In this document: in pieces, positions 8,339 to 33,645 of the stretch
How the letters are laid out: each line of letters opens with the position of its first letter
Numbering within the stretch: position 1 is the stretch's first letter
Sequence record: SRR22947725_531
Strand: one strand, 5' to 3'
DNA: 37,132 nt
Made by a program: the position numbers and the translations under genes
The notes under the pieces: generated by a model
Told to the model about the DNA's origin: nothing
Database searches by the model: none
Seen by the model: the letters and a program-made list of their open reading frames with translations, nothing else

Positions 8339-8372
8339 AAAAAAAAAGCCCGGGGAACACAAACCGGGCTTT
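8339..8372 (-). terminator. Rho-independent terminator of the sugar transferase gene
   Basis: Minus strand AAAGCCCGG-loop-CCGGGC followed by T9. Confidence 0.85.
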
Positions 8373-9067: not shown

Positions 9068-9100
9068 TGTAGTCTCCTGAATTAATTTCAAGAGGCTCAA

Positions 9101-9116
9101 TGCACCTTACGATCCA
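9101..9116 (-). promoter_or_regulatory. Sigma-54 -24/-12 promoter of the sugar transferase gene
   Basis: TGGATCGTAAGGTGCA: GG and GC at the canonical spacing. Confidence 0.7.
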
Positions 9117-9234
9117 TTTACATACAAAAAGTCATAAATCGCTACTTATAAACATTTTAATAAAATCAAAAAAAACAGGAATTCCAATAAATTATTACAG
9201 AAGCCACACATTAAAACATGCGTTTAGTCACACA

Positions 9235-10608
9235 TCAATCTGTAGATTTAAAAAGCTTTCTGTTAATATTATATTTCTTAATTTTATCATAAAGAGTTTT
9301 TCTCGGTATACCCAACCCTTTATAAGTTTCTTCAACAACTCCATTATTTTTCTTGAATTCTTCCTCTATGAGATACTTTTCGTAAGCCCCAACCATTTCT
9401 GGTAACTTTAAACCTTTAGGGGCACTAAAATTATCTCCGGAAATAACAACGTCAGCATCGAGACTTTCGTGCTCTTCATCTGGTAAAAACCCTGTAATGA
9501 CAAAGCGTTCAGCGATATTCCTTAATTCTCTAACATTCCCTTCCCACTCTCTAAGAATAAGCTTATTGAGTACATCATCCTCTACATTTATGAGTTCACG
9601 ATTATACTGTGTACAATACTCAAAAACAAAATGGTTAAATAACAAAGCTATATCATCTCTTCTATTCTTTAAAGCGGGTATTTTTACCGGTATGACATTT
9701 AGACGATAATAAAGGTCTTCTCTAAATGAACCTTCTTTTACTAGCTCTTTTAAATCAACCTGAGATGCTGCGATTAGGCGTATGTCTACCTTAGTCAAAC
9801 TATTACTACCGAGCTTCTCTATGGCACGTTCTTCAAGTACTCGAAGCAGTTTTACTTGCATTGCCATAGGCATGGAATTAACCTCATCTAGAAATAATGT
9901 CCCGCCATGACTCAGTTCTATTTTTCCTTTGCGAGATTTAGCTGCTCCTGTAAAAGCACCTACTTCATGGCCAAACAACTCACTATCCATAAGGCTTTCT
10001 GGGATAGCGCCACAGTTAATGGCAGTAAAAACCTGATCTGCTCTATCTGAATTATCATGAATGAACTTTGCAGTAACTTCTTTACCTGTCCCTGTTTCTC
10101 CAACAATCATGACACTCGCATCAGATGCTGCGATATTTTTACACATTTCTTTTAATTTCAGCATAGATGTCGCCTGACCAAGTAATGAAGAACTTCCTTT
10201 CTTTAAAAGGTTTTTTCTCAAAACTTTATTCTCTAGCCGTAAACTCCTTTTCTCGAGAGCTCTTTTCGCTGACTCTATTAAATAGTCTTTTGAAAGTGGT
10301 TTCTCTAGAAAATCATAAGCCCCTGACCTCAATGCTTTAACTACTGACTCTAAGTCGCCATTTCCTGTCAGTACTATGACTGGTATATCTGGATCTATGC
10401 TTTTTACTCTTTCAATTACTTCAAAGCCATCAATTTTGGGCATAGTTAAATCTGTAACAACTATTCCTGGCCATTCAGGTTCAATCTTTGAAATCATTTC
10501 AACTGGGTCATCAAAGAATGTCCCTTTAAATGGGGCCTTATGCATAATTAATTTCATTGCATAAAGAATATTATTATCATCGTCGCAAAAATATATTTCT
10601 TTTTTCAT
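9235..10608 (-). CDS. Sigma-54-dependent enhancer-binding response regulator (NtrC family, DctD-like)
   Basis: REC (DDD, TDLTMP, EKP); Walker A GETGTGKE; SELFGH.GAFTGA; LFLDE; FREDLYYRL; WEGNVREL; Fis-type HTH LGIPRKTLYDK. Confidence 0.95.
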   Translation of the reverse strand: MKKEIYFCDDDNNILYAMKLIMHKAPFKGTFFDDPVEMISKIEPEWPGIVVTDLTMPKIDGFEVIERVKSIDPDIPVIVLTGNGDLESVVKALRSGAYDFLEKPLSKDYLIESAKRALEKRSLRLENKVLRKNLLKKGSSSLLGQATSMLKLKEMCKNIAASDASVMIVGETGTGKEVTAKFIHDNSDRADQVFTAINCGAIPESLMDSELFGHEVGAFTGAAKSRKGKIELSHGGTLFLDEVNSMPMAMQVKLLRVLEERAIEKLGSNSLTKVDIRLIAASQVDLKELVKEGSFREDLYYRLNVIPVKIPALKNRRDDIALLFNHFVFEYCTQYNRELINVEDDVLNKLILREWEGNVRELRNIAERFVITGFLPDEEHESLDADVVISGDNFSAPKGLKLPEMVGAYEKYLIEEEFKKNNGVVEETYKGLGIPRKTLYDKIKKYNINRKLFKSTD

Positions 10609-10676
10609 AAGTTCCTCAGAAAAAAAATTCAGATTAACTCAGCATACAATTTATTGATATGCAAAAGCAACTATTT

Positions 10677-10694
10677 TGTGCGTTTTTTTATACA
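10677..10694. promoter_or_regulatory. Candidate enhancer (UAS) for the sigma-54 activator
   Basis: TGTGCG-N6-TATACA between the divergent activator and nitroreductase genes; resembles the DctD-type TGTGCG...CGCACA dyad. Confidence 0.5.
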
Positions 10695-10943
10695 TCGTTT
10701 TGTATGGTTAATGAAACACTACCAATACTAAAATTCATAAAGAACTTATATATAGATACTTATGAATATAAAATAACATTACTGATGTATTTTTTTTATA
10801 TATGTGGTTTTAGTGTCAATCTTTTCAAAAAAATAAATTCATAAAGTCACAAAGTACTGCTTATGTGATACTTATACCCTATTATTCTCGATTGAACTTT
10901 TATTTGCTTTAAACAGGCACTCAATCAAAAACGAGAGAACACA

Positions 10944-12332
10944 ATGAACGGACAAAAATTTTTAGAACTAGCGGGTAAAAGAAGAAGCACAAGGCTTTTT
11001 CAAGATAAACCACTAGAAGATGAAAAAGTCAGAGAGGTTATTCAAGCCGCCTTGGAGGCTCCAACTTCATGTAATAGACAACTTCTTAAAGTAGTTGTAG
11101 TTAAAGATCCTGAAGTTAAAGCAAAATGCTGTAAGTTAAGCCATGCACAACAAAGCTACTTCTATGATGCGCCTGTCATACTTTCTGTATTCTACGACAT
11201 AAGCCTGGAAAATAGGAATCCCTGTAAAACTCCTTACATCAGTACCGGAATGGCAATACAAAATATGCTATTGATGGCTGAAGCCATGGGACTAGGGGCA
11301 ATATACTTGGGCGGCATTCGTAATCCAAAAGGTATGGAAAAAGCTTTAAATGCACCTCCATTTTTACAAAACTTAGGAGTTATATGTCTTGGTTACAGAG
11401 CAGACAACCCTCCAAAGCCAAGACACAGAAGTGTTGACGACATAATTTCGTACGATAGTTGTGCTTTTCAAGAAGCAAATTTCCTCAATGATATTCGCCC
11501 AGAGAAGTGGAACTACAAACAACTAGCAGATTTTAGGGAACAACTATTATGGTATAAAGGCATAGGTATTGATGCTAGAATTAAACATGTAGATTCAGCT
11601 CCTAGATTTTCATTAAAAAATAACTTTGTTTATCAAACTCTTGGAAGGATGATTCAAAGTATAAAGAGCCCAGCTAAGTACTTAGATGTCATGCCATTCA
11701 ATGGAGACCCTCTTCTACAACTAAAATTAATGTCTGGTAATGAAATTGATACTATCTACTCTTATGAACAAACTGAAAACATAAATAAGTACATGAGAAA
11801 AAGACTCAATGAAATTATCAGTCTAGATAAAATTGAGTTTTTGAGCAATAGCAAAACTGATGAGGTCTCCATCCCATTAGACGATAACAGTGTTGATGTA
11901 ATTAGCTGCTGCGAAAAAATCAATCAATTCCACGATCCAAAGCCACTATTAAAAGAGATTAAGAGAATTATGCGAAAAGGTGGTAAAGCCCTCTTTTTAG
12001 TAAGTAATAAACTCTACCCTCACCTGTACCATTACAAAAGGTTAAAGAATAAACAATATGCTCTTGGGCGTAATTGGAACCATGGCCCTGAATGTAAACT
12101 TTCTCATTGGGAGGTCTTAAAGCTCTTCAAGGAATTGAATTTCAAAGTAACCAGAAGTTATGGCTTAAATCCAATAGAAAATAAATTCGCAAGACTTACC
12201 TCAAAGCTTTTCAAAAAGATGAGTATGACTTCAAACTCTGATCTTTATGAAGATAAAGCACGTCATTCTTATGTAACTGAATCAAAATTAAAAAACTTTA
12301 GCGAGACACTGGCTTATGAAATCACATTATGA
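10944..12332 (+). CDS. Nitroreductase-family domain fused to a C-terminal SAM-methyltransferase-like domain
   Basis: RRSTRLF, APTSCNRQ, GMAIQNMLL.AEAMGLG, LGY (nitroreductase); IPLDDNSVDVI...DP..LLKEIKRIMRKGG (class I MTase). Confidence 0.8.
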   Translation: MNGQKFLELAGKRRSTRLFQDKPLEDEKVREVIQAALEAPTSCNRQLLKVVVVKDPEVKAKCCKLSHAQQSYFYDAPVILSVFYDISLENRNPCKTPYISTGMAIQNMLLMAEAMGLGAIYLGGIRNPKGMEKALNAPPFLQNLGVICLGYRADNPPKPRHRSVDDIISYDSCAFQEANFLNDIRPEKWNYKQLADFREQLLWYKGIGIDARIKHVDSAPRFSLKNNFVYQTLGRMIQSIKSPAKYLDVMPFNGDPLLQLKLMSGNEIDTIYSYEQTENINKYMRKRLNEIISLDKIEFLSNSKTDEVSIPLDDNSVDVISCCEKINQFHDPKPLLKEIKRIMRKGGKALFLVSNKLYPHLYHYKRLKNKQYALGRNWNHGPECKLSHWEVLKLFKELNFKVTRSYGLNPIENKFARLTSKLFKKMSMTSNSDLYEDKARHSYVTESKLKNFSETLAYEITL

Positions 12333-13587
12333 AAATGCCTTAAACAGGCTAGAACTCTGGATTAATAGTATTAGAACAGAAGATGGCTACCATGGACCTG
12401 CGATTGGCCCTAGAAGCACTCAATTAGGTTGTTGTCTTGTTGGCTTCGACTGGCGCTATGAAGGTCTGCTCAATGGCTGGATAAACTTACATAAATCAAC
12501 AGGTAAGATGAAATACCTGAAAAGAATACAAGAAGATTTAGATCAAATCACTAATGCTCAATTATTAAATGGTACTTTTCGAAACTCTCATTTCAGCGAA
12601 GGTCCATTTGAAGGTGGGATGCCCCACGAACCTGCCATGTTAAATGCTGCAGTGAAAGCGGCAGTTTATCTGGAGAAACATAAGTATGGCAACACTCATA
12701 ATTTAAGAGAGTGTGTAAGGAAATACATTGATACATACTTAATAAGTCACTTATGGAATAAGCTATTGAAAACATTCAATAATTGGCCATTTAGTGAGTT
12801 TGAGAAATACAGCCCATACTGTGTAGCTGCAGCCGTAGAATTAATTTATGATTACGGAATTTGGCAAGATAAATTAGAGAATTACGAAAGCTACATAGTG
12901 GCAGCTACTGAGTCAATGATAAAAGTTCAATGCACAGTCGGTACCTGCGCTGGAGGATTCCCCACTCTTTCTTCTCATACCAAGGGTTTTGTTCCGTTAT
13001 TTACTGCCAGATGCTTTCGAGCATTACAGGTTGCCAACCTACTGACTAATGACAACCGGTATATTCATTCCTTAGACAAAGCTAAGGCCTACGTAAGAAG
13101 GTCAGCCCTTGATGAAGGTGGCTTTTATCGCTTAACATACAATGACCGTGAACCTATAACTTACCCATTAATGATAGGTGCTGTAGCTAGTATACTTGAA
13201 TCATTCAGCAGAGTCGATGACCTCAAAAAAGATGAACTTGAACGGCACCTGCCTTTAATTCTTAGCGAACAGCTCCCAAGTGGAGGTTTTGCAACAGCCA
13301 TAGGGTTCAATAAGACCAAGAAGCCAAAAGATAATGAATTAAGGGACTACCGTGATTTGTTCCCTGTTTGTGCCTGGAATGACAAAGTCTTTCATCTACT
13401 CACAACGGTAGCTGATGGTACTACCATATGTAAAAGTTCTATAAAGGCCAACCTACAAGTTAAGATAAACGGTAAGGTTGGTACCTACATTGAAACTCCC
13501 CAGGAAATTACCCTTATGAATAATAAACATCAAATAGTTTATCAATGGCTCAAAAAAAATAGCTGGCCACTGAAAATAGCACTTTAA
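12316..13587 (+). CDS. Uncharacterised protein, probable (alpha/alpha) toroid fold
   Basis: Repeated Q..(N/S)G(G/T)F-type motifs (QLLNGTF, ALDEGGF, QLPSGGF) and TG..KYL; overlaps the upstream gene. Confidence 0.6.
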   Translation: MKSHYENALNRLELWINSIRTEDGYHGPAIGPRSTQLGCCLVGFDWRYEGLLNGWINLHKSTGKMKYLKRIQEDLDQITNAQLLNGTFRNSHFSEGPFEGGMPHEPAMLNAAVKAAVYLEKHKYGNTHNLRECVRKYIDTYLISHLWNKLLKTFNNWPFSEFEKYSPYCVAAAVELIYDYGIWQDKLENYESYIVAATESMIKVQCTVGTCAGGFPTLSSHTKGFVPLFTARCFRALQVANLLTNDNRYIHSLDKAKAYVRRSALDEGGFYRLTYNDREPITYPLMIGAVASILESFSRVDDLKKDELERHLPLILSEQLPSGGFATAIGFNKTKKPKDNELRDYRDLFPVCAWNDKVFHLLTTVADGTTICKSSIKANLQVKINGKVGTYIETPQEITLMNNKHQIVYQWLKKNSWPLKIAL

Positions 13588-13603
13588 AAAGGTAGGTGAC
13601 AAA

Positions 13604-14851
13604 ATGAAAAAAATGTTAATTATTAATGAAAGAATGGGCCGATTTTCTGGAGCTGAGCAGAATATTTTTGTAACTCTCCCATTCATAAGCGAAAAATTCA
13701 AAGTACATTTCCTTTACAATGAGAATACCGGCAAAGGCATAGATGAACTCGACAAATATATTGAAGGCAGTACACAAGTTGATTTCATCAAAGAAGGAAG
13801 AGAAAAGTTTAAAGAGACAAAGAAAATACTTGAAGAAATAAAGCCTGATATAATCTACGCCCATAAGTGTATGAATGTTTCCATGCTAAAAGCACTTAGA
13901 GCTTTTGGTGTCCCCTTAGTTCGAATGCAGCATGATCATGATATGTATTGTATGAGAAGCTATAAGTATAATCCATTAAATAGAGAGATCTGCACAAAGA
14001 AGGCTGGATTAAAATGTGTATTCCCTTGCATGGCTTCATTAAAGAGAGACCGCGATTCAAAATTAGGCTTTACATGGGTAAGCTACTTTAAGCAGATGCA
14101 GCAGTTAAAAATCAATAAAACGTTTGATGAAGTTTTTGTGGTAACTGAATATATGAAACAAGAGCTGATGACTCAAGGATTTGATGAAGAAAAAATTTCT
14201 ATTTTCCCGCCTGTCCCAAGGGAAAATAAAGATGTTGTAGAAAGTGAATTCTCCGATGAGAATATAATTATTTTTGCGACACAGATTATTAGAGGCAAAG
14301 GCCTAGATTGCTTAATTCAGGCTTTATCTAAAGTAAAAAGTAATTTTAAACTTTTAGTCTTTGGTGAAGGTGCTCACAAATCAACCTGCCAAGAACTTGT
14401 GAAAGAGCTTAATTTAGAAGATAAAGTTATTTTTAAAGGCTTTGTGAGCCAGGAAGAACTCAAAGAGTCTTATAGAAACGCCAGTATTGGAACTGTCCCA
14501 TCGGTATGGCCAGAGCCCATAGCGACTGTCGGCTTAGAATTCCTTAGGCATGGACTCCCTGTTATTGGATTTGATGCTGGAGGCATAAAAGATTGGTTAA
14601 AAGATGGAGAGACCGGTTTTTTATTACCATGGATGGATATTGAAGGAATGACTCAAAAAATTGATTTACTTCTCCAAAATAAAGATCTCGCAAAAAATTT
14701 AGGTCATCGTGGTCGTGAGTTCGTTAATCAAAGCTATAATTTTTCTGCTTACATCAACAGGTTGACGAATCATTTAGCACTACTCGCAGACCGCAGCCTA
14801 ACTAAATGTACACCACCTCTATTAGTTCACTCTAAAGTGGCAAACATGTGA
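13604..14851 (+). CDS. Glycosyltransferase family 4
   Basis: GAEQ, KGLD.LI.A, PSVWPEP...VGLE...GLPVIG...GGI.DW..DGETG. Confidence 0.92.
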   Translation: MKKMLIINERMGRFSGAEQNIFVTLPFISEKFKVHFLYNENTGKGIDELDKYIEGSTQVDFIKEGREKFKETKKILEEIKPDIIYAHKCMNVSMLKALRAFGVPLVRMQHDHDMYCMRSYKYNPLNREICTKKAGLKCVFPCMASLKRDRDSKLGFTWVSYFKQMQQLKINKTFDEVFVVTEYMKQELMTQGFDEEKISIFPPVPRENKDVVESEFSDENIIIFATQIIRGKGLDCLIQALSKVKSNFKLLVFGEGAHKSTCQELVKELNLEDKVIFKGFVSQEELKESYRNASIGTVPSVWPEPIATVGLEFLRHGLPVIGFDAGGIKDWLKDGETGFLLPWMDIEGMTQKIDLLLQNKDLAKNLGHRGREFVNQSYNFSAYINRLTNHLALLADRSLTKCTPPLLVHSKVANM

Positions 14852-16278: not shown

Positions 16279-16379
16279 AGTATTTCAAAAAAAACAAATT
16301 TTTAAATGTTATTATAAAAAATATAAAGTACTAATATTCAATATATTACAAATAAAAATAAACAACTTACATTAATTAT

Positions 16380-16395
16380 TGGCAAGCTATATGCT
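16380..16395 (+). promoter_or_regulatory. Sigma-54 -24/-12 promoter of the ExeA-like ATPase gene
   Basis: TGGCAAGCTATATGCT, 33 bp before ATG 16429. Confidence 0.75.
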
Positions 16396-16428
16396 AGTAT
16401 ATAGTCAACCCTAACCAAACTGAAATTT

Positions 16429-17271
16429 ATGAGTAGTTATACACACAGAGACCAAATAAGATCAGCTTTTGAAGCAAGTGCAGATCCGCGTTTTTTTTAT
16501 GATAGCGCGCATCATTCTGAAGCACTTGCTCGCTTATTGTATATAAGCAATGATCAGGGTATGAACATAGGTGTAGTAACTGGTAATATTGGTTCCGGAA
16601 AGACCTTACTGTGCAGGACACTGTGCACCCAACTTAAGCATGATAGGTACGCTACCGTTTATATACCTACAGTAAATATTCCATTTGAAGCCTTAATTGA
16701 TTGTTGTATATATCAAATTACTGGGAACCATGCTCCAATGGAAATTCAAGGTAATAGATACTTACTATTAATTGAATTCCACAAAGCTCTTGAAGAGCAC
16801 ATTATAAGAAGTGGTAGACATTTAGTTTTAATACTGGATGAATGTCAAATGCTTTCGCAAGATTGCTTAGAGAACCTTAAGTGCCTAACAAACACACCTA
16901 ATGGAAACTCTCCTCTTACACTAGTTTTGTGTGGTCAACCAGAATTTAATGTTTTACTGAATAATTCACCAACTGTAAATCAAAGAGTTGGGTTAATGTA
17001 TTTCTTACCCTACCTGCCTAAAGACGAAATTTACCCTTATATTTCTCATAGGTTAAATCAAATTTCTAAGACACTTACAATGGATGAAAATGCCCTTGAC
17101 TTAATTTATGACTTTTCTAAAGGTTGTCCTAGAGAGATTAATAAAGTTTGTAAACTCGCTTATGAACAAGTTAATCAAGATACGGAAATTAATTTTTCAT
17201 CAGATGTCTTTAGTTTAATAATCAACGACATACATGAACAGCGTCAGATAATGACAATGATGAATGCCTAA
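16429..17271 (+). CDS. ExeA/GspA-family AAA+ ATPase (as found in exosortase/PEP-CTERM loci)
   Basis: DPRFFY.S..H.EAL.RL.Y, Walker A GNIGSGKT, Walker B LILDECQ, L.GQPE, S.G.PREIN. Confidence 0.9.
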   Translation: MSSYTHRDQIRSAFEASADPRFFYDSAHHSEALARLLYISNDQGMNIGVVTGNIGSGKTLLCRTLCTQLKHDRYATVYIPTVNIPFEALIDCCIYQITGNHAPMEIQGNRYLLLIEFHKALEEHIIRSGRHLVLILDECQMLSQDCLENLKCLTNTPNGNSPLTLVLCGQPEFNVLLNNSPTVNQRVGLMYFLPYLPKDEIYPYISHRLNQISKTLTMDENALDLIYDFSKGCPREINKVCKLAYEQVNQDTEINFSSDVFSLIINDIHEQRQIMTMMNA

Positions 17272-17654
17272 TCAAATTCGCTAAACCTTCGTCTCTAAGC
17301 CCACCGCTACACTACTTATACTACAGTGAACCTTTTGTCTTAACTTAGACTATTAATTACCCTGTATAGCCATAAACATCTAAGTACTTATAAGAACTGA
17401 ATTTAAATGTTGCTTTAAGATTTAACACGGCAAAAAAGCATTTAATTCAAGATCATGTCTATATACTAATCTCAAATACTCCCCAAACTACCTCGAGAAA
17501 AATGAGTACTTAATTAATTCAAATACAAATTAGGAATCAGCTATTCCTCTTCTAATCCTTGGCTACAATAGCAGGTATATAATACCCAACTTTTTTATCT
17601 CCCTGAAATAGCTCTACTCATCCTTTTTATTTCTAGATTTTGCTACAATGCTGA

Positions 17655-17694
17655 CTATACCCTTTTACACACAGCTATAACTTTTTACACACAA
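17655..17694 (+). repeat. Tandem 20-bp direct repeat, probable tandem activator sites
   Basis: CTATACCCTTTTACACACAG / CTATAACTTTTTACACACAA (17/20 identical), each containing CACACA. Confidence 0.7.
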
Positions 17695-17830
17695 CTCATG
17701 GGCACTCAACAAAAAAAGACACCCGCAAAAAATACATAAAGTGCTTACTGTGTTAATCTTATAATTTTAAGATTAGTAAATAAACCGAGAATTGCTAAAT
17801 GGAGTCATCTTTATTTAAGGAAGTTATAAG

Positions 17831-22482: not shown

Positions 22483-22529
22483 TCTAAATAGACTAGAAGT
22501 CTCTAAATATCATTCACAATAAGCCCTTT

Positions 22530-22561
22530 AAAAAGCTAAGCTAACACAGCTTAGCTTTTTT
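22530..22561 (+). terminator. Intrinsic (bidirectional-type) terminator after the flippase operon
   Basis: AAAAAGCTAAGCT-AACAC-AGCTTAGCTTTTTT. Confidence 0.85.
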
Positions 22562-22750
22562 AATTCTCCCGCCAAAAAGGATGTAACCAATGTCGCATAT
22601 TATGGCATCCCCCTTCTCACCCATTTATGGTAAATATTGAATTTTTAAATTTACATAAATAGCTAATTAGTAATATATTATAAATATATAATGCAACAAA
22701 GAACGCCTCCTGCTTTATCACGTGTAGAATTACTATAAAAGGACACAAAC

Positions 22751-23857: not shown

Positions 23858-23895
23858 TTTTCTAAACTTATCTTAAGCTAAAAAATACTTTCAGT

Positions 23896-23936
23896 TGAGG
23901 GATAATCTTTCACAGGATTATCCCTCATTTCTTTTT
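23896..23936 (+). terminator. Rho-independent terminator
   Basis: TGAGGGATAATC-N8-GATTATCCCTCA-TTTCTTTTT. Confidence 0.85.
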
Positions 23937-24140
23937 ACCTGAAAAAGGCTTCACTAAGAATTCTTACATTTAAATGAATTGAGTAAATCAAAAATATCCC
24001 CAATTCCTCACAAACTAAGAATCATAGAAAATTCTGTGTATATATACACACTTTCACAAACCCCGCACGAGCATAAATACACTCATTTAAAATACACAAA
24101 GTACTTACTATATGGTACTTACATAAAACATAATATCATT

Positions 24141-24156
24141 TGGCGTTAAGATGGCT
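24141..24156 (+). promoter_or_regulatory. Sigma-54 -24/-12 promoter of the wzc-wza-wza operon
   Basis: TGGCGTTAAGATGGCT with canonical GG/GC spacing. Confidence 0.65.
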
Positions 24157-24185
24157 AATACCCTATGAAAATAATTGGTACTATA

Positions 24186-26378
24186 ATGGAATTCAGAAAA
24201 CAAAATAACAATAAGCAAACTAAAGCTACTAGCTCAAAGAAGTTAAGTATTAAAAAAATGCTTGACAAGATTCAGCTAGAAGATGAATTCATTGAAAAAG
24301 AATTCTCTAGAATTGCTTCTGCAACACCAATTCCAATGCCTGAATTCACCTACAGCCAAAAATCATGCGATGCAAAATCAATCCTAACCCAAACGAAATC
24401 AACTGATTATGACTTTAAAACAAGTATAAAAGGTTTTAATAAAAAAGATTTCCTTTCAAATTTTGATTGGTCGAAGATCATAATAAACATTAAATTCAAA
24501 ATCCTATTATTTGCGATTGTTGCAGTTCTTAGCAGTTCAGCCGCAGCATATTATGCATTTCTACAATGGGATTCAAAAATACGTTACTCCTCAACAAGTC
24601 GCTTAATGTACAAAACGGTTAAAGACAAAAGCCGTCAGGTCCTAGGTAAAGCAACTTCCATAAAGATGATTGGTTCAAAAAGTAACCTAAGAAAGGTATT
24701 GGAAGATAAACCTGACTATGACTACAGCATTGGTCAATTGTCACATCAACTGAAAGTAAGCATTGATAGTAAAACTGGCATTGTAACTATTAATGTTAAT
24801 GATGCTGATAAAAATAAAGCTGTAGAATTTGCAAACAGTATTGCTGAAATCGCACTTATTGAAAATAAGAATTACTATAGGGCCGCATTTCATTCAAAGT
24901 ACCAAAACTTAATGAAGCAAATAGCATTAGCTGAAAAGTATCTTAATGCTCAGGAACGAAGAGTCGTCGACTTTATGAGTCAAAGTGGAATGATTAATAG
25001 TAAAGAATCATTCAGAGTATACTTCGAAGGTTTGAACATTCAGGAGAGGTCTTTCCTAAACGCTCAAATAAACTTAGAGCAGTATTTAATTGAACTTAAA
25101 GTTCTCGAAGATGAATATTCAATAATGCCTAATGAAGTCATAAGGAACTCTTATGAGGATAACCCAGTTAAAGCTCGCTTAACTAATACAAAACTAGCAT
25201 TACTTGATGCACAAATTACTTACGGAGAAGATAATCCAAATGTAAGTAGTATTCAAGATACAATAAAAAGGCTCCAGGATCAGTTAGCCACACAAGATGT
25301 AAAGTCAACTCTTCAAAAAGTATATATGCCTAACTTAGCGAAAGAGAGGCTCAAAATGGAGATCGAAAAGAAGAAAGGTCAGATAAAAGCGCAAAGAACT
25401 AGATTGCAAACGCTAAAAAGTGACATTACAGAAAGACAGCTTGACTTAGGTAAAATCCCTCAAAAACAATTGACATTAGAAGCTCAGCTAAGAAAAAAGC
25501 AAGCTTATGAAGATTTACTGAATAATCTTCGTCGAAAAGTTAATGATGTTGAAATCTCCATGAAAAGTGAGACAACTGATTTGGCTTTTTATGAACAAGC
25601 GACCAATGCATCGACAATTAAACCAACAAAATATCTAGCATTACCTGTAGGAGCATTAGTATTCACTTCTTTAATTGGTTTCTTTTTTATCAGCTTTAGT
25701 GAAATTCTCGATAAGAAAATCTATACAAGAAAACAACTTTCAATAAATTTTGATACACCTTGTGTCGCTACTGTTCAAAAAGATAAACAAGATGGTCTTT
25801 ATATCCTTAGAGATATTGCTTCATTTATTAAAAGTGAACAAAAAGCAGTCATCAAAACGCTAGCCTTTACAAGTTCCTGTAAAAAGGAAGGTAAATCTAC
25901 TTTCGCTCATAAAATGGCAAAATATTACCATAACCTGGGCTTAAACATCTTATACCTTAACCTCGATCATACTGATCTCTCTGCATGTGAGATCCCTCAA
26001 GATAAATTACTCAATAACTACATAGAGTCAGACTTAAGTTATGAAAGCTTTTTAATAAATGGCTCTACTCCTGAATTGAACTGCATATTCAATAATGATT
26101 TAATCGAATCTTTTAAAACTCGCCGTTTTGAAGGTTTATGGGTAAGCCTTAAAACTGACTATGAATTAATAATCATTGATCTACCTGCCGTTTTAGAAAG
26201 CAGCCTAACTTTAGATTTGTTAGAGAAAATCGACTTCAATTTATTAGTCATTGACTCGGAAAACACAAACACCGATAAACTTAAAAAAACTTTCCAGACA
26301 TTAGAAAACCGTACCCTTCAGCCACATGGCCTGATACTCAATAAAATCACCCCTAAATTTATGAAGATTAACTTATGA
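24186..26378 (+). CDS. Polysaccharide co-polymerase (Wzc/GumC-like) with C-terminal BY-kinase-like ATPase domain
   Basis: Two TM segments flanking a coiled-coil periplasmic region with YG..NP.V; TSS...EGKST (Walker A), IIIDLP; start placed at ATG 24186, downstream of the sigma-54 site (track start 24165). Confidence 0.88.
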   Translation: MEFRKQNNNKQTKATSSKKLSIKKMLDKIQLEDEFIEKEFSRIASATPIPMPEFTYSQKSCDAKSILTQTKSTDYDFKTSIKGFNKKDFLSNFDWSKIIINIKFKILLFAIVAVLSSSAAAYYAFLQWDSKIRYSSTSRLMYKTVKDKSRQVLGKATSIKMIGSKSNLRKVLEDKPDYDYSIGQLSHQLKVSIDSKTGIVTINVNDADKNKAVEFANSIAEIALIENKNYYRAAFHSKYQNLMKQIALAEKYLNAQERRVVDFMSQSGMINSKESFRVYFEGLNIQERSFLNAQINLEQYLIELKVLEDEYSIMPNEVIRNSYEDNPVKARLTNTKLALLDAQITYGEDNPNVSSIQDTIKRLQDQLATQDVKSTLQKVYMPNLAKERLKMEIEKKKGQIKAQRTRLQTLKSDITERQLDLGKIPQKQLTLEAQLRKKQAYEDLLNNLRRKVNDVEISMKSETTDLAFYEQATNASTIKPTKYLALPVGALVFTSLIGFFFISFSEILDKKIYTRKQLSINFDTPCVATVQKDKQDGLYILRDIASFIKSEQKAVIKTLAFTSSCKKEGKSTFAHKMAKYYHNLGLNILYLNLDHTDLSACEIPQDKLLNNYIESDLSYESFLINGSTPELNCIFNNDLIESFKTRRFEGLWVSLKTDYELIIIDLPAVLESSLTLDLLEKIDFNLLVIDSENTNTDKLKKTFQTLENRTLQPHGLILNKITPKFMKINL

Positions 26379-27400: not shown

Positions 27401-27403
27401 ATT

Positions 27404-28360
27404 ATGTCCAAACTAATAGTCATTTTATTAATTTTTAGCATCAACTTGATTGCGAATGAAACAAAGCAAGTAAATCAAGAGTATCGCCTTAATAATGGCG
27501 ATGTGCTAGATATCAGCATTTATGGAGTTGTGAGAGCTAAAAAAAGAGTTGTTATCGACTCTAGAGGGTATGTAACATTCTTATTAACTGGTGCTGTTAA
27601 AGCAACGGGAAAAACTATTAGTGAACTAAGAAACCAACTTCATGAGACCATAACAAAAAAGAGAAAACATGTCGTTGTCAGTGTTACTCCTGTTGCCTTC
27701 AACAGTCAAAGTTACACAATAAACGGTCAAATAAAATTCCCAGGAAAAAAGCCTCTGGATGGGAACACTACACTCCTAGAAGCCATAGCCTTATCTGGTG
27801 GCTTTCAAGCTGGTGAGTTCCGCAATTCAACAGTAGATTTAGCTGACCTTGCTCATGCTTTTGTCGTAAGAGATAATGATAAACTTGATGTTAATTTTCA
27901 GGATCTAATTTTAAAAGGAAATACATCATTAGACATAGAGCTTAAAAATGGCGATTATATTTTTATACCAAGTGCATTAACTCAGCATGTTCACATTTTA
28001 GGAAGAGTTAAATTCCCAAGAAAAATACTCTATCTGAATAGTGTCACTCTAATTCAAGCATTGACTGAAGCACGGGGTCGTATGGTAGATGCATCTAACC
28101 ACGCAGCTATAATCAGAGGCTCCCTTTCTGAACCAAAGCAGATTATCGTTAATATAAACGACATACTAGCCGGTAAAGCACCAGACGTTTTACTTAAGCC
28201 GAACGACATCGTCTATATCCCAGAAGACGGAAGCCAAGAATTTACCGAATTAGGAAAAACAGCTATTAGAGCATTTGTTAGGACTGTGGCATCTCGTGCA
28301 GCCGACAATAGTGCTGAATTTATTATCCCAGAAAAAAGAATTGAATCAGACGTAAAATAA
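27404..28360 (+). CDS. Second polysaccharide export protein (Wza/OPX family)
   Basis: YRL..GDVL.ISI, ID.RG.V, G.T..EL; SLBB repeats; signal peptide without Cys. Confidence 0.9.
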   Translation: MSKLIVILLIFSINLIANETKQVNQEYRLNNGDVLDISIYGVVRAKKRVVIDSRGYVTFLLTGAVKATGKTISELRNQLHETITKKRKHVVVSVTPVAFNSQSYTINGQIKFPGKKPLDGNTTLLEAIALSGGFQAGEFRNSTVDLADLAHAFVVRDNDKLDVNFQDLILKGNTSLDIELKNGDYIFIPSALTQHVHILGRVKFPRKILYLNSVTLIQALTEARGRMVDASNHAAIIRGSLSEPKQIIVNINDILAGKAPDVLLKPNDIVYIPEDGSQEFTELGKTAIRAFVRTVASRAADNSAEFIIPEKRIESDVK

Positions 28361-28376
28361 AGAGAGGTATACGAAG

Positions 28377-29651
28377 ATGAGCACAAACAAAAACACAAGC
28401 ACAGGCACAACACTCAAGGTCATGATTGGTGGAGTCCCATTTGGTAGAAATAATATCGGCGATGAAGCTATATTAGAAGGAATGGTGAAAATCATAAGAA
28501 TCATTAGCCCAGGCGTTAAACTTACAGTCAGTACTGATGATCAAAAAAATACATCTGAAAAATTAGCCCTTAGTACATGCCCACTTTTTGGCTTTAGCCA
28601 TGTTGCATATGATGCTGGCCAAGCACGCAAGATTATAAAAGAACATGATTTGTACATTTGGTGTGGGGCAACAGGTCTTTCAGATTACCCTGAAGATGCC
28701 TTATCACTTTTAGATATTTGCCGCGATGTAAAAGTTCCCAGTATTGTTTTTGGAACTGGTATGAATAAAGAACTAAATCCACTCAAATATAAAATTCAGG
28801 ATGGCAAGAAAAGAAAACTTCTAGATTTAATTAAAACTTTGAGCATAGGCACAATAGATCCAGTTACAATCCTAGAAGAAAGAATGATGAAAAAAACTCA
28901 CCAGCACATTAAATCGGCATTTAATAAAACTGAACTTGTTGTCTTAAGGGACACTGATAGTGCACGCCGTGTAACCGAGATTTGTAATAGCAAGAACATA
29001 AATGTCGGTGCTGACCCTGCGATTCTCATTCCTAGCAACAAAGATATATATACAAAAATTGATGCTAAAACTAATGCAATGCTAAAGACCTCAAAGAAGA
29101 AAATCGGTATTTGCATATCTGCACAAAGAAAAGTCAAACAGTTTGCTGAATTGGCAGAAAGTATCGATGCATGGATCATGAATCACGACCTTGAAGTTTA
29201 CTTCATACCAATGAATCCAGTCACTGATCGCGAGCTCATGAAGAATTTACTGAGTACAATGAAAAATAAGGATGCCTGTGTAGTCGTTGAAAACTGCCTT
29301 GAGCCTGCAGATATAGTAGAAATCACGTCACATATGGACCTCGTCATTAGTAGCCGACTTCACCTATTAATTCTTGCATCCATTCATTCCATCCCCCTTA
29401 TTGGTATAAGTCGAGGTAGCAAGGTTGACTCATTCTTAAATATGTATGGGCTAAAATCTTCTGGTTCAGTAGATGATCTAGACTTGAACCATCTAAATGA
29501 GCAAGTTCAACATTTTATCGGTGTTGGGCCAGAATTTATTTACTGCGGCAAAAAAATTCGTGAACAAATGTTAAAACGACTTACTAATGCAATCACAAAA
29601 CTAGAAATGTCATTCAAGAAATTGTCTAAAAAAGGTGCTTGTCATGCATGA
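28377..29651 (+). CDS. Polysaccharide pyruvyl transferase (CsaB/WcaK family)
   Basis: NIGDEAIL, LRD..S, ADPA, SSRLHLLILA, KV. Confidence 0.9.
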   Translation: MSTNKNTSTGTTLKVMIGGVPFGRNNIGDEAILEGMVKIIRIISPGVKLTVSTDDQKNTSEKLALSTCPLFGFSHVAYDAGQARKIIKEHDLYIWCGATGLSDYPEDALSLLDICRDVKVPSIVFGTGMNKELNPLKYKIQDGKKRKLLDLIKTLSIGTIDPVTILEERMMKKTHQHIKSAFNKTELVVLRDTDSARRVTEICNSKNINVGADPAILIPSNKDIYTKIDAKTNAMLKTSKKKIGICISAQRKVKQFAELAESIDAWIMNHDLEVYFIPMNPVTDRELMKNLLSTMKNKDACVVVENCLEPADIVEITSHMDLVISSRLHLLILASIHSIPLIGISRGSKVDSFLNMYGLKSSGSVDDLDLNHLNEQVQHFIGVGPEFIYCGKKIREQMLKRLTNAITKLEMSFKKLSKKGACHA

Positions 29652-30900
29652 GTCAGAATTAAAATCTGTATGTCACGTCATGCGACGTTTTGTAAAGGAT
29701 AAATGGGGCGGCACAGAAGCTGTAGTTCTAAACTATTCAACAAATATGGTCCAAAGAGGAATTCATAATTCAATTTATGCAACAAACATTTTCACCAAAA
29801 ATAAGTATGAATCTATAAATGGTGCGGTTGTAAAGAGATTCAATTATATCTTCCCATGGCTTTTCCTTACAAAGCCCGCAAAAGAAAAACTCATGCTGAA
29901 AGGAGGCAGTCCACTATCATTAAGTCTCTTTTGGAACTTACTATGCCAAAAAGATGTATCGATCATACATGCTCATGTCCAACATAGACTAGGCGGTATA
30001 GCTAGAACTGTCGCCAAATTAAAAAAAATCCCCTACGTAGTTAGTCTACATGGTAATTACTTGACTCTGCCTAAGGAAGAGTCTGATAAAATGATGAAAC
30101 CGTTTAAAGGTAAATTTGAATGGGGTAAATTTTTCGGCTTATTGTTTGGTGCAAGAAGAACAGTTAAAGACGCAGATGCAGTAATCTGTGTAGATAAAGA
30201 AGAGTTCAAACAGCTTACAGTAAAATACCCAAGTAAAAGAATAATCTATCTGCCTAATGGTGTTGATGTCGAGAAGTTTCAGAACGTAACTGGTCAATTT
30301 TTTAGAGATTCAATTGGCTTAAAAAAAGATGAAAAGTATGTGCTTTGTTTGTCTCGAATTGATTATCAAAAGAATCAGCGCTTACTCGTTCAGGCATTTG
30401 CAGAATACAGTATCAACCATCCAAAACACAAGCTTGTCTTAGTCGGTCCTGTAACTGTTGAAAGCTACTTAAGTGAAATACAGAAAGATATAAAAACATT
30501 CGGTCTCCAAGATAAAGTAGTTATCATACCCGGCTTACAGCATGATGACCCTTTATTACCTTCGGCTTATAAAGGTGCTGATATGTTTGTTTTACCATCA
30601 AAACATGAACCATTTGGTATAGTTATACTAGAAGCTTGGGCATCTGAAGTCCCAGTGATATCGACTGCATTAAGTGGTATCCAGGCTTTCACTTCTAATG
30701 AAGAAAACTGCCTGCACTTTGAAAGTGACAACAAAGCTCAACTTCTTCAAAAAATGAACATGTTGGATGACCAAGATCTACGTTCAAATCTGATAAAGAA
30801 TTCTAACAATGAGGTTAATAAATACAGTTGGAAAACAATCACGTTAAAGTTACAGGAAATATACCGTGAACTAATTACAGCAAAAAGGAGCTCAAAATGA
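29644..30900 (+). CDS. Glycosyltransferase family 4
   Basis: GGTE, PNGVD, RI..QKNQ, FVLPSKHEPFGIVILEAWA..VPV; ATG 29644 after AAGGTG. Confidence 0.92.
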   Translation: MHESELKSVCHVMRRFVKDKWGGTEAVVLNYSTNMVQRGIHNSIYATNIFTKNKYESINGAVVKRFNYIFPWLFLTKPAKEKLMLKGGSPLSLSLFWNLLCQKDVSIIHAHVQHRLGGIARTVAKLKKIPYVVSLHGNYLTLPKEESDKMMKPFKGKFEWGKFFGLLFGARRTVKDADAVICVDKEEFKQLTVKYPSKRIIYLPNGVDVEKFQNVTGQFFRDSIGLKKDEKYVLCLSRIDYQKNQRLLVQAFAEYSINHPKHKLVLVGPVTVESYLSEIQKDIKTFGLQDKVVIIPGLQHDDPLLPSAYKGADMFVLPSKHEPFGIVILEAWASEVPVISTALSGIQAFTSNEENCLHFESDNKAQLLQKMNMLDDQDLRSNLIKNSNNEVNKYSWKTITLKLQEIYRELITAKRSSK

Positions 30901-32024
30901 ATATCGACTTTTCATCATTTGTTTTACAAGGAGGCAAAAGCGGTGTTGCTCGTTATGTCATAGACTTGCTAGCCACGCTTAACCAAAAGTCTAAAGGGCA
31001 CAAGTTTAACGTATATGTACCAGAGCATGAAAGGAAGCTTCTTAACAAACAAAGTAAATCAATGGCTTTTAATGTATGTTCTAAAATTACCGCAAACCCC
31101 ATTTTCTCGATTCTTTGGCATAACATTATTATGCCTTTCAAAAACCAAAATGTCGACCTTGTCCATATCCCAAGTTATCGTAGAATACCATTTATCAAAA
31201 AAAGTAAAATAATAGCAACAGTTCATGACTTAGCTACATTTAGAATTAATAACAAATACGATAAATTAAGAATGTTTTACAATCGAAAAATTGTACCTCT
31301 ATTAATTAGACGTTGTGATCGAATCATTACTGTTAGTGAGTTCTCGAAAAAAGAAATCGTGCATTTTACTGGTTATGATCCAGAGAAAATTGATGTTATA
31401 TACTCTGGTATAAATCATGAGCTATTTAGACCCATATGCAAAGAAGCTGCAAAAGCCCAGCTTTCTGCCGAGTTAAATATAAACTTCCCTTACATATGTT
31501 ATGTATCAAGAATTGAACCTAAAGCAAAAAATCATTTTAGATTACTAGAAGCTTTTGAACGTTACAAAGACAATAACGATACAGATAAAAAACTTCTACT
31601 AGTTGGTTCAAACTGGAATGGCGCTGATGAATTTATCAAAAGAGTCAATCAGTCAAAATACAAACACGATGTTTTGATGACAGGCTATGTAAGAGATGAA
31701 TTACTTCCATACATTTACTCTGCGGCATCCTTATGTGTTTACCCCTCACTTTTTGAGGGTTTTGGATTCCCTGTAATCGAGGCACTTGCATGTGGCGCGC
31801 CTGTTATTTGTTCCAATACAACATCATTAAAAGAGATTTCTGATGGCCGGCTCCCCTGTTTCGATCCAGAATCAACAGATGAAATTTACGATTGTTTGGA
31901 AAAAACTCTTGAATCAGATAATCACATGCAGAATACAAGAGAAAATATTAAATATGCCAAAACCTTTAATTGGAATAAAACTGCAAATAAGGTTTTAGAA
32001 TCATATCAAAAATGTATCGACTAG
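30897..32024 (+). CDS. Glycosyltransferase family 4 (mannosyltransferase-like)
   Basis: GVARY, TVHDL, TVSEFSK.EI, KN, YPSLFEGFGFPVIEALACG.PV. Confidence 0.93.
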   Translation: MNIDFSSFVLQGGKSGVARYVIDLLATLNQKSKGHKFNVYVPEHERKLLNKQSKSMAFNVCSKITANPIFSILWHNIIMPFKNQNVDLVHIPSYRRIPFIKKSKIIATVHDLATFRINNKYDKLRMFYNRKIVPLLIRRCDRIITVSEFSKKEIVHFTGYDPEKIDVIYSGINHELFRPICKEAAKAQLSAELNINFPYICYVSRIEPKAKNHFRLLEAFERYKDNNDTDKKLLLVGSNWNGADEFIKRVNQSKYKHDVLMTGYVRDELLPYIYSAASLCVYPSLFEGFGFPVIEALACGAPVICSNTTSLKEISDGRLPCFDPESTDEIYDCLEKTLESDNHMQNTRENIKYAKTFNWNKTANKVLESYQKCID

Positions 32025-32064
32025 AGGCGTTTAAGCTTATATAAAAATCGACTCATATTGAACA

Positions 32065-32100
32065 ATTAATGACGCCAATTTTAAACTTGGCGTCATTAAT
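32065..32100 (+). terminator. Stem-loop / probable terminator after the GT4 gene
   Basis: ATTAATGACGCCAA-N8-TTGGCGTCATTAAT, perfect 14-bp stem, weak U-tract. Confidence 0.7.
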
Positions 32101-32420
32101 ATTTAGACTTATTATAGCTTCACCGCTACTTGAGATTGTTTCATTCCAATAATAAATAATAATTTTTTATGCACTCTCAGATATAAACTTCCTTAAGAAA
32201 CTCCAGGCAAGATATAAGCTATTATAATTCATTGCACATCCATAAAGATTCCACGTGTTCTAAAACCCACACAATCCCTTCCCCCTAAGCGCACACGAAC
32301 CCTCCGAACCCACCAATAAAAAAATCATAATTACCTTATTATGTAAATGTTACACATAATTTACCAACAACTTCACGATTCCTGCTAGTAACCTAAAATG
32401 TACAAAACAAAGGACACACA

Positions 32421-33518
32421 ATGAACGTTTTAATAGGTATACCGGTTTGGAATGAGGAAGATATAATAGCCCAAACTTTAACTTCCTTACATCAGCAAAG
32501 TATTTTCAGACGTAAAGACCTCAATGTTGAAATAATTGTCTTGGCTAATGCCTGTAAGGATAGAACTGTAGAAGTAGCTCGTGATACTCTAAAATTATTA
32601 GAAAGCAGTAAACAGACAAATTCCTTTAGTAAGGTCATCAATTCTCCTGTTCCAGGTAAAATCAACGCTTGGAATGATGTAATGGATAAATACTCAACTG
32701 GAGATGACGATTACATCATATTTATGGATGGAGACATAATTTTTTTACAAGATGATAATCTGGAAAAACTAATCAATGCATTGGTCCAAAGTAATGAAGC
32801 ATGGGTTTCTACTGACCAACCGATCAAGGATATATCATTAATAAAAGAGAAAAATCTATCTCAAAAAATAAGCTTGTTATTTTCAAAATTCACACAAAAA
32901 TCGCAAGGTCAGCTTTGTGGACAACTGTACTGTTGTAAGTCTAGTTTTTTAAGAAGAATGGCAATTCCAAATGGTATCTTCATAGAAGACACATTTATAA
33001 AATATATGGCCATTACAAATGGTCTCACTGAAAAGCCCAATAACAAACGTCTCATTAATGTAGATGGCGCTTCACATCTATTTGAAGCTTATACTGGGTT
33101 AAGTGCGTACTTTAGCAACCAAGTTAGACAAACTATATCATTCACAATTTGGAGGCTCTTTAAAAAGCATGTCAAAGAAAATGTCAGTCCTTCAAATGCC
33201 CTTGAATACACCAAAAAAATGTATTCAAACAATCCTGATTGGTTTAGTGAAGTCGTTAGAAGCCGATTTGAAGAAAAGAAATACTGGCACATCTACAAAG
33301 GTGCCTTAAAAGTTCGCTTTCACAGACTAAAGCTTTTAGGGTTTGTAGATAAACTCAAAATGTTATTACCTGTAACCGCAGCATGGGTTCTAGATCTTGT
33401 TATTTTCATATCCAGTAACAAGAGAATCAAAGCCGGAAAAATTAACAACATATGGCCTGATACACAAAGTAGTAATTTAGCAAAAGTTAGCTCTGCCAAA
33501 ATAGACCCCGTCTGTTAA
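32421..33518 (+). CDS. Glycosyltransferase family 2
   Basis: IPVWNEE, NAC.DRT, GK..AWN, FMDGD, GQLY, ED. Confidence 0.88.
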   Translation: MNVLIGIPVWNEEDIIAQTLTSLHQQSIFRRKDLNVEIIVLANACKDRTVEVARDTLKLLESSKQTNSFSKVINSPVPGKINAWNDVMDKYSTGDDDYIIFMDGDIIFLQDDNLEKLINALVQSNEAWVSTDQPIKDISLIKEKNLSQKISLLFSKFTQKSQGQLCGQLYCCKSSFLRRMAIPNGIFIEDTFIKYMAITNGLTEKPNNKRLINVDGASHLFEAYTGLSAYFSNQVRQTISFTIWRLFKKHVKENVSPSNALEYTKKMYSNNPDWFSEVVRSRFEEKKYWHIYKGALKVRFHRLKLLGFVDKLKMLLPVTAAWVLDLVIFISSNKRIKAGKINNIWPDTQSSNLAKVSSAKIDPVC

Positions 33519-33521
33519 AGC

Positions 33522-33539
33522 AGTGCGAGAAACCGCTCA
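33522..33539. promoter_or_regulatory. Candidate enhancer (UAS) upstream of the TPR-exosortase operon
   Basis: AGTGCG-AGAAAC-CGCTCA, about 75 bp upstream of the -24 element. Confidence 0.55.
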
Positions 33540-33614
33540 GCCTAAAACCTCCATCGTCTAAACAAAAAACCTAAGACACTGATCTATATGATCTTATGAC
33601 TACAATAGACTCAC

Positions 33615-33630
33615 TGGCATATTAAGTGCA
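33615..33630 (+). promoter_or_regulatory. Sigma-54 -24/-12 promoter of the TPR-exosortase operon
   Basis: TGGCATATTAAGTGCA. Confidence 0.75.
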
Positions 33631-33645
33631 CTTTTGGAAACTGTT

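Follow-up and report, generated by a model that had tools for sequence, protein, structure and literature searches.

A phased 29-bp palindrome accompanies putative sigma-54 promoters, with and without the −24 GG, in an exopolysaccharide locus of a Lentisphaeraceae bacterium

The 37,132-nucleotide stretch of DNA analysed here (sequence record SRR22947725_531; hereafter the window) reads as an XrtA/PEP-CTERM-type exopolysaccharide (EPS) locus of a metagenome-derived, marine, Lentisphaera-like bacterium of the Lentisphaeraceae. Its operons are preceded by 16-mers that resemble the −24/−12 core of sigma-54 promoters and, a short and near-constant distance upstream, by a 29-bp imperfect palindrome that we call the box (consensus approximately CATAAAGTAyTTAT-N-ATAArTAcTTAyR). 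With modest confidence we interpret the ensemble as a three-part sigma-54 promoter, in which the core would be joined by a phased box serving as an IHF-like site and in which core variants lacking the −24 GG would function with that assistance.

An initial annotation of the window had described eight such 16-mers, four with a canonical GG-N10-GC and four GG-less but ending in TGCT, and all eight are present letter for letter, in position and on strand (Table 1). It had also tied them to a shared 25-bp element at a fixed spacing of 18–19 bp (31 bp for the ATPase gene). The element is real, but alignment of the DNA upstream of the 16-mers redefines it as the 29-bp palindrome, and the minus-strand site at 9101 has only half of it. 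The spacing likewise holds in strict register at six of the eight sites, or seven counting the ATPase outlier, but not at 9101; the earlier distances equal 16–17 and 29 nt from the box end if the 25-bp element ended 2 nt earlier. No full minus-strand box was found near 9101, with none scoring at least 4 in 9000–9300 and none scoring at least 10 in a second scan. A position weight matrix (PWM) trained on seven box copies and run over the window recovered all seven, a weak coding match at 25210 and two noncoding copies absent from the initial annotation, one with its own 16-mer at 7911 and a second, nearly symmetric one at 10736. The latter stands 112 nt upstream of the box at 10848, in the divergent region between the PrsR-like activator gene and the gene at 10944, and no −24/−12 motif follows it on the minus strand, which faces the activator gene. 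Conservation within the box is concentrated in the outer CATAAA, CT and TTAyA columns, and tracts of at least six A lie within 25 nt upstream of six of the eight window boxes. When the DNA upstream of the nine window boxes was searched for 7-mers that might mark a common distal enhancer, mainly A/T-rich words and box fragments came back, and no candidate.

The register between box and 16-mer was compared with noncoding background frequencies per position of 0.0119 for [TG]GC[AT], 0.0040 for TGCT and 0.0010 for GG-N10-GC. Against these, [TG]GC[AT] falls at one of the two register offsets in six of nine boxes (P = 1.4e-8), TGCT is in exact register at four of the five GG-less boxes (P = 2e-8), and in-register GG-N10-GC occurs at two or more of the nine (P = 1.5e-4). 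A metagenome variant contig has eight differences in 24054–24131 and none in the 16-mer at 24141–24156, which is weak evidence. Besides AGGCAAGATATAAGCT at 32205, no alternative GG-N10-GC was found on the coding strand of the GG-less intergenic regions.

Related genomes carry the same arrangement. Four orthologous promoters were aligned between the window and G001 (Lentisphaera marina), G007 and G008. At GT32421 the 16-mer is CTTCACGATTCCTGCT in the window, TGGCATAGGATAAGTA in G001, TGGCATAAGACCCGCA in G007 and TGGCATCATATAAGCA in G008; all three relatives have TGGCAT where the window has CTTCAC, and every 16-mer lies 16–17 nt past its box. The register therefore marks the −24 position of sigma-54 in this family, in line with the initial annotation, which had taken the fixed spacing as a sign that the degenerate sites are real, and GG in register at 11 of the 17 new sites described below and a GAFTGA-bearing activator within the locus support the same conclusion. 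At GT17831 (TAAACCGAGAATTGCT in the window, then GTTCCAGGTGTTTGCT, GTTCCAGCTTTTTGCT and ATGCCTATTGTTTGCT in the same order of relatives) GG is missing from all four genomes and the −24 part is unconserved, while TTGCT stands in register in all four. The wecB 16-mers read AAGAACGCCTCCTGCT, GTGCACGGCGTTTTTT, TTGCACGCGGTCTTAT and TAGCATGAGCTATGAT, and those of the sugar transferase TGGATCGTAAGGTGCA, TGGCATGACTTATTTT, TGGAACATACTTTTTT and TTCACTATCTTTTGTT, to which G006 adds TGTATCGTTACTTGCA, with TGTATC against the TGGATC of the window. The start codon lies 29–37 nt past the 16-mer in 14 of 16 cases, the exceptions being wecB in G007 (49 nt) and in the window (38 nt), and by eye a pyrimidine-rich YTCC and then AAAC occur 5–12 nt past the 16-mer, approximately where a sigma-54 transcript would start. 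Orthologs of GT17831, GT32421 and wecB were not found in G005 or G006 with the queries used, so the closest relative informs only the prsR, sugar transferase and pspA promoters.

Reciprocal cases occur in Lentisphaera, where TGGCAY is kept and TTTCW, TTTCG or TTTTA stands in place of TTGCW, and suggest that a −12 variant with T for the G of GC is typical of this lineage. The form TGGCACG..TTTCGTT at pspA is common to Lentisphaera species (loci L116, L117 and L118), and TTTCW stands at several other promoters. A second case of wide spacing, like that of the ATPase promoter, is found on the minus strand of a G006 contig (C195, locus L090), where a strong palindromic box is followed after about 27 nt by the canonical TGGCACGGTCACTGCA. 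The sequence AGGCAAGATATAAGCT (32205–32220), a box-less GG-N10-GC that precedes the GT32421 start by 200 nt, agrees at 12 of 16 positions with the in-register 16-mer of G008 at that gene; this could be chance, as about 0.5 such sites are expected in the spacer.

The box and core extend well beyond the EPS locus. A composite model of both (74 nt, sequence only, 22 training sites), searched in five genomes, gave 26 matches with loci, nine of them training sites and 17 new. Eleven of the new matches carry GG in register, five lack it and one is out of register, although in-register GG is present in only about half of the training sites. The new sites precede genes for a second sugar transferase, a mannose-1-phosphate guanylyltransferase-like protein (ManC) and prepilin-like, ClpB-like and PspA-like proteins (assigned by eye, except PspA), and the module also stands, in G001 and G008, ahead of genes whose products by eye end in PEPEFY and a hydrophobic tail. 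The same-family genomes G002, G003 and G004 gave only one, one and two composite matches at E ≤ 0.05. In a table of 42 sites, self-chosen and partly model-derived, correction by eye left 13 with GG and GC, 12 with GC only, 10 with GG only and seven with neither; the automatic count was 13, 10, 10 and 9, the script having mis-registered 7911 and the pspA site of G006, both GC-only by eye. Perfect TGGCAY-N5-TTGCW has 40 matches in G001, G007 and G008, and all 30 of those examined lie in stop-free stretches of at least 200 codons, none of them with a box nearby (best box score −3.5).

In G005, the PspA-like gene is preceded by the box, 16–17 nt and then TTTCATTCAACCTGCT, which is GG-less with CCTGCT. 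The gene is divergent from that of a 313-aa PspF-like activator with GAFTGA, whose best model is pspF (336 bits), and by eye the intergenic region holds no GG-N10-GC. In G001, G006, G007 and G008, pspA was located through its protein and not through the box model. Here G001, G007 and G008 have the box, 17 nt and TGGCACG..TTTCGTT, that is, GG without GC, and G006 has the GG-less 16-mer CCCTCAAATTCCTGCT. All five genomes share the order of box, 16–17 nt and 16-mer at pspA, divergent from a PspF-like gene. Inverted repeats lie farther upstream than the box in all five (for example TGGTGTTTTTCACCA and GAGGTTTTTCA...TGAAAAACCTC; in G005 two separate repeats, TGGTGTTTTTCACCA and GTGGTGTAAACCAC), and we infer that these are the activator sites, a role they fit better than the box does. 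The ectoine operon of G005 provides a further setting, with the box, 16 nt and TGGAATGATTCATGCA upstream of ectA (143.7 bits, above cut-off) and ectB. It adjoins the gene of another response-regulator activator, which scores 356.9 on the PrsR model. Because the box is in register at the EPS locus, at pspA and at the ectoine operon, it accompanies the sigma-54 promoters of at least three different activators. It is more likely a generic companion of sigma-54 promoters in several regulons than the EPS regulator's own enhancer, and the notion in the initial annotation of an element belonging to the pathway gives way accordingly.

The box is centred about 33 bp upstream of the GG, near −57. According to the excerpted text of two sources, IHF is located between activator sites and core in many sigma-54 promoters (PMC4641369), and at the Pu promoter of the Pseudomonas putida TOL plasmid IHF bending aids polymerase recruitment and brings UP-like elements to the alpha subunits (PMC3900584). 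At pspA, in five genomes, the box is placed between the presumed activator repeats and the core promoter. In the mechanism we propose, the −24/−12 16-mer would be the seat of the sigma-54 holoenzyme, as its sequence and conservation suggest, and a dimeric architectural protein may bind the box, the best candidate being an IHF-like homodimer. Such a protein would both bend the DNA and bring in the activators that are bound at more distant upstream sites, the PrsR-like protein in this locus and PspF at pspA. With the A-tracts immediately upstream of the box it would also help to recruit and position polymerase, as IHF does at Pu. Where this help is given in a fixed register, either half of the core could decay; the four in-register GG-less sites and the out-of-register site at 7911, all of which keep YTGCT, would then most likely be weak, assisted sigma-54 promoters.

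Each of four genomes (G001, G006, G007 and G008) has one HU/IHF-family gene, and its product scores 71–79 bits on the IHF alpha and beta models against 40–46 bits on HU models. With a single gene, the protein would presumably be a homodimer, which would fit a palindromic site. The IHF consensus is WATCAANNNNTTR, whereas the box consensus reads TATAAGTAACTTA, and the box and its mirror image each partly resemble the former. We regard the question of whether the family's single IHF-like protein binds the box as evenly balanced. The more specific proposal, that a rigidly phased box and a homodimeric IHF-like protein make the −24 GG (or the −12 GC) dispensable throughout the Lentisphaeraceae, is conceivable but in our view rather doubtful.

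As for the GG-less sites, we lean towards their being working, assisted sigma-54 promoters. The register statistics and the reciprocal Lentisphaera sites, which keep TGGCAY and lack TTGCW, speak for this. With TTGCT retained at GT17831, and with CCTGCT but no GG at pspA beside pspF in G005 and G006, the two nearest relatives, these sites look selected rather than random, and the related genomes suggest that a missing GG is tolerated rather than a sign of decay. The initial annotation had offered a sigma-54 with relaxed −24 recognition as one explanation. All six family genomes searched have rpoN, and the canonical RpoN box ARRTVAKYR is present in eight of their nine sigma-54 open reading frames (ORFs), including the two paralogs each of G005 and G006. 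Because the RpoN boxes, as read in these relatives, are canonical, an altered sigma is an unlikely cause and assisted recruitment a more likely one. Its other explanation, graded promoter strengths across the pathway, is plausible. The observation behind the initial annotation is thus largely confirmed and its interpretation partly supported.

Several points weigh against the three-part reading. The training sites and the site table were self-chosen, so that the composite model is partly circular. Genome-wide, the box-only model does not reach significance (best E 0.04), its best matches being near-perfect 29-bp palindromes, and only about six of the 20 loci listed around the best 20 matches carry a sigma-54-like motif at or close to the register position, so that the box is also found apart from sigma-54 promoters. 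As these matches are near-palindromic and mostly without such a motif, the box would be an independent site for a symmetric protein. The IHF-like protein falls below the curated IHF cut-offs for both subunits (111–115 bits), and the columns of the box equivalent to WATCAA are poorly conserved (0.1–0.6 bits), which is why the assignment to IHF is something we infer. To our knowledge, GG at −24 is nearly invariant in characterised sigma-54 promoters and, since the RpoN boxes of the family are also canonical, GG-less sites should bind poorly. Sigma-70-like matches overlap two of them, TTTACA-18-TATATT at 22650–22679 and TTCACG-16-TAAAAT at 32372–32399.

The near-invariance of GG, the canonical RpoN boxes and the sigma-70-like matches would all suit a different reading, in which the GG-less 16-mers are decayed relics or sites of another factor and the operons are read from sigma-70-type promoters or by read-through. 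Orthologs also switch between GG and non-GG, as at the sugar transferase of the window and of G006, which implies weak constraint on GG, and by eye some GC-less sites of relatives carry −10-like hexamers at the −12 place, for example TATAAT at wecB of G007. We nevertheless consider this reading unlikely. It does not account for TGCT in exact register at nearly all GG-less boxes of the window, for TTGCT in register at GT17831 in every genome compared while the −24 part varies, or for a GG-less pspA beside pspF in both G005 and G006. The sigma-70-like matches do not exceed those in shuffled sequence (59 against 68.5 ± 9.7, and 9 against 6.6 ± 2.6), and consensus scans found none at 10893 or 17781. 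Taking TTGCTA as a −35 was dropped by eye, as it would put the −10 on the ribosome-binding site. Three further possibilities were considered by eye and dropped: ECF-type GAAC-N16-CGT promoters, an extended −10 (TGnTAnnnT), of which the last T is mostly missing, and the TTACA of the box as a −35, in which case TGGCAT would become the −10.

Less probable still, in our estimate, is that the box is a short-range enhancer of the locus's own PrsR-like activator, acting with a sigma-54 relaxed at −24, such that the eight sites form one PrsR regulon. The activator gene does sit inside the locus, activators of this type number only two or three per Lentisphaera genome at E ≤ 1e-60, and the box can also be parsed as a tandem pair of 13-bp palindromes, a layout suited to two dimers. 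Its final bases, TTACA or TTTACA, moreover resemble those at the 3' end of motif 1, the 17-nt predicted PrsR site in Proteobacteria (PMC1569441, excerpted text), and most predicted activator sites in Desulfovibrio lie less than 100 nt from the promoter (PMC4641369, likewise). Yet the same arrangement of box and register is found in five genomes at pspA, next to pspF, and again at the ectoine operon, which has a third activator; G005 has the box too, and there the best relative of the PrsR-like protein is only 40% identical. At pspA the distinct upstream inverted repeats suit an activator better, the spacer between motifs 1 and 2 in Proteobacteria is 32–92 nt (PMC1569441) against 16–17 nt here, and the RpoN boxes speak against the relaxed sigma that this reading includes. 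Least probable of all is a box unrelated to sigma-54, whether a global regulator or nucleoid-protein site or an UP element for the alpha subunit, with the link a by-product of A+T-rich DNA and of the search models: the upstream A-tracts, the box-only model's lack of genome-wide significance and its many best matches without an in-register sigma-54-like motif would be in keeping with this, but the register statistics of the window alone, the GG frequency among new composite matches and the box 17 nt from the core at pspA promoters located via protein are not.

The nearest described system is that of Haft et al. 2006, who, in the excerpted text of their paper, describe, ahead of PEP-CTERM genes in Proteobacteria, a sigma-54 motif that is separated by 62.8 ± 10.6 nt (32–92) from an upstream 17-nt motif with TTTACA at its end; the two co-occur with PrsK, PrsR and PrsT and are stated to be confined to Proteobacteria (PMC1569441). 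For one PEP-CTERM gene of Aquincola, RpoN dependence and a mapped start have been shown (PMC9850573, in part). Set beside that text, the window has in common with the proteobacterial site a sigma-54 motif and an upstream motif ending in T(T)TACA, an exosortase/EPS setting, an NtrC-family regulator and a TPR protein, and in relatives the module precedes genes for PEP-CTERM proteins. It differs in its rigid spacer of 16–17 nt, which falls outside the motif 1 spacing, and in an upstream motif that is a 29-bp palindrome. The module here also precedes EPS biosynthesis operons as well as pspA, ect and prepilin-like genes under other activators, the activator and TPR protein of the window score below family cut-offs, and the window has no PrsK. 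The arrangement is thus distinct from the known PEP-CTERM-box wiring in its rigid register, 29-bp palindrome, several regulons and apparent tolerance of a missing GG or GC. Two TGTAA-N-TTTACA palindromes resemble the published motif that ends in TTTACA, TGTAATAAAATTTACA at 7772–7787 and, in G006 (contig C253 near 11405, locus L024), TGTAAAGTTTTTACA a short way ahead of the activator gene, and their frequency is not above chance; TGTAA-N4-10-TTACA palindromes occur about once per 40–60 kb, equal to the chance frequency estimated by hand.

Comparison with Pu, as presented in the excerpts of PMC3900584, yields a similar position of the bend site between activator sites and core, and a low-affinity core; A/T-rich DNA upstream of the bend site could dock alpha subunits, and recruitment would be limiting. 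Differences are that a single IHF-like gene is present here, with a presumed homodimer and a palindromic site to which binding is predicted from sequence, that many promoters and genomes share one fixed register to −24, that the match to WATCAANNNNTTR is only partial, and that Pu keeps its GG. The canonical sigma-54 consensus is TGGCAC-N5-TTGCW (PMC4641369, PMC9850573, both in excerpt). Like canonical sigma-54 promoters, the window has GG-N10-GC at four sites, a TTGCW-like −12 at all eight, short leaders with a ribosome-binding site and a GAFTGA activator nearby. Unlike them, four in-register sites and one out of register lack GG, the −12 is often TTTCW or TTTCG in Lentisphaera, and the perfect-consensus matches examined lie in coding DNA. 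No study of sigma-54 promoters in Lentisphaerae turned up in the literature searched, in which that exact phrase was not a query.

The G+C content of the window is 33–43%. Gene identities come from family-model matches, most of which score below curated cut-offs (Table 1). Further matches include glycosyltransferases, two export proteins, a pyruvyl transferase, a TPR protein (49.6 bits on the PrsT model against a cut-off of 312.2) and the start of an exosortase, and the PrsR-like activator contains both Walker A and GAFTGA. Among the window ORFs no histidine kinase or PrsK was found, nor, by eye, a PEP-CTERM gene (model TIGR02595 was not run). The nearest named relatives of the ATPase are L. 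marina and L. profundi (53–54% identity). The PrsR-like activator is 84% identical to its counterpart in G006, which belongs to L. marina's family, and 63–64% identical to those in G001, G007 and G008. The clusters of these last three are largely orthologous to that of the window with gene order rearranged. A single-protein search of genome contigs gave no match, an alignment search matched L. marina only, and a metagenome search gave four loci, none of them close. The 462-aa nitroreductase-like/methyltransferase-like ORF and the 423-aa ORF after it (10944–13587) have no counterpart in the G001, G006, G007 and G008 clusters, and the TPR/exosortase operon of the relatives opens with a gene for a PEP-CTERM-tailed protein that is absent from the window.

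Some listed start codons sit close to the 16-mers. Between the 16-mer at 24141–24156 and the listed ATG at 24165 there are 8 nt, and between that at 33615–33630 and the listed TTG at 33634 there are 3 nt. If transcription begins about 11 nt past these 16-mers, the true starts would have to be the later ATGs at 24186 and 33645; the chain-length gene probably does start at a later ATG, and the mRNA of the TPR gene would be almost leaderless. The sugar transferase probably starts at the ATG at 9070–9068.

Other features lie near the boxes. The segment 7656–8395 has 740 nt without an ORF of at least 70 aa and contains the 7868 box and an out-of-register TTGCT at 7922–7926. It also has two AAATTTACAAT repeats (near 7745 and 7781), which also score as sigma-70-like −35 hexamers, and, read by eye, a GC-rich hairpin at about 8340–8372. 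This segment could encode an untranslated RNA; an Rfam search gave no matches. A direct repeat, TTTTACACACA, occurs in two copies 21 nt apart at 17652–17690, some 95–125 nt upstream of the 16-mer at 17781. Several boxes also have CACAC/GTGTG words upstream, and TGTGTGAA is a recurrent word ahead of wecB in three relatives. All three are candidate sites of the real activator.

Table 1. Boxes, 16-mers and principal genes of the window. Distance is from the end of the box to the 16-mer; GG-less 16-mers have GC only.
Feature	Position	Strand	Distance (nt)	Evidence or remark
29-bp box, ninth copy, CATAAATACCTAATGATAAAGTATTTACA	7868–7896	+		PWM 16.9; 27.7 in second scan; within 740-nt noncoding stretch
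16-mer CACCCCCAGTATTGCT, GG-less	7911–7926	+	14	2–3 nt off register; no ORF after it
Sugar transferase (polyprenyl glycosylphosphotransferase) gene	8396–9100	−		Family match
16-mer TGGATCGTAAGGTGCA, GG-N10-GC	9101–9116	−		Sequence; before sugar transferase gene
Weak half-box	9134–9162	−		PWM scans, alignment; 3' half GATTTATG alone fits, then 16 nt, TGGATC
NtrC-family response-regulator activator gene, PrsR-like	9235–10608	−		TIGR02915, 382.9 bits against cut-off 502.6
Second box, nearly symmetric	10736–10764	+		PWM 22.7; second scan 27.4 (+), 15.8 (−)
29-bp box	10848–10876	+		Alignment, PWM
16-mer TGAACTTTTATTTGCT, GG-less, TGCT	10893–10908	+	16	
29-bp box	16322–16350	+		Alignment, PWM
16-mer TGGCAAGCTATATGCT, GG-N10-GC	16380–16395	+	29	ATPase gene
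PEP-CTERM-system ATPase gene	16429–17271	+		Family match
29-bp box	17735–17763	+		Alignment, PWM
16-mer TAAACCGAGAATTGCT, GG-less, TGCT	17781–17796	+	17	GT17831
29-bp box	22654–22682	+		Alignment, PWM
16-mer AAGAACGCCTCCTGCT, GG-less, TGCT	22699–22714	+	16	wecB
29-bp box	24095–24123	+		Alignment, PWM
16-mer TGGCGTTAAGATGGCT, GG-N10-GC	24141–24156	+	17	
Chain-length determinant/tyrosine kinase gene	24165–26378	+		Family match
29-bp box	32326–32354	+		Alignment, PWM
16-mer CTTCACGATTCCTGCT, GG-less, TGCT	32371–32386	+	16	GT32421
29-bp box, weakest among seven	33570–33598	+		PWM 19.9
16-mer TGGCATATTAAGTGCA, GG-N10-GC	33615–33630	+	16	Before TPR/exosortase genes

Among bacterial promoters, those of sigma-54 count as the most strictly defined, with a consensus reportedly compiled by Barrios in 1999, and regulon predictions rely on GG-N10-GC. 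Here a phased box travels with the core, and promoters conserved between species, pspA beside pspF among them, can lack either half of the core. Should the GG-less sites be functional, core recognition would be exchangeable for architectural help, and the Planctomycetes–Verrucomicrobia–Chlamydiae (PVC) group would offer a simple system in which to set recruitment against isomerisation control. GG-less sigma-54 promoters would then have been overlooked by every consensus-based regulon prediction, leaving poorly studied phyla under-predicted. If these sites do not work, the locus would be one in which sigma-54 promoters decay where they stand and the box upstream of them is retained. In both cases the box provides a practical search handle for sigma-54 promoters in the Lentisphaeraceae.

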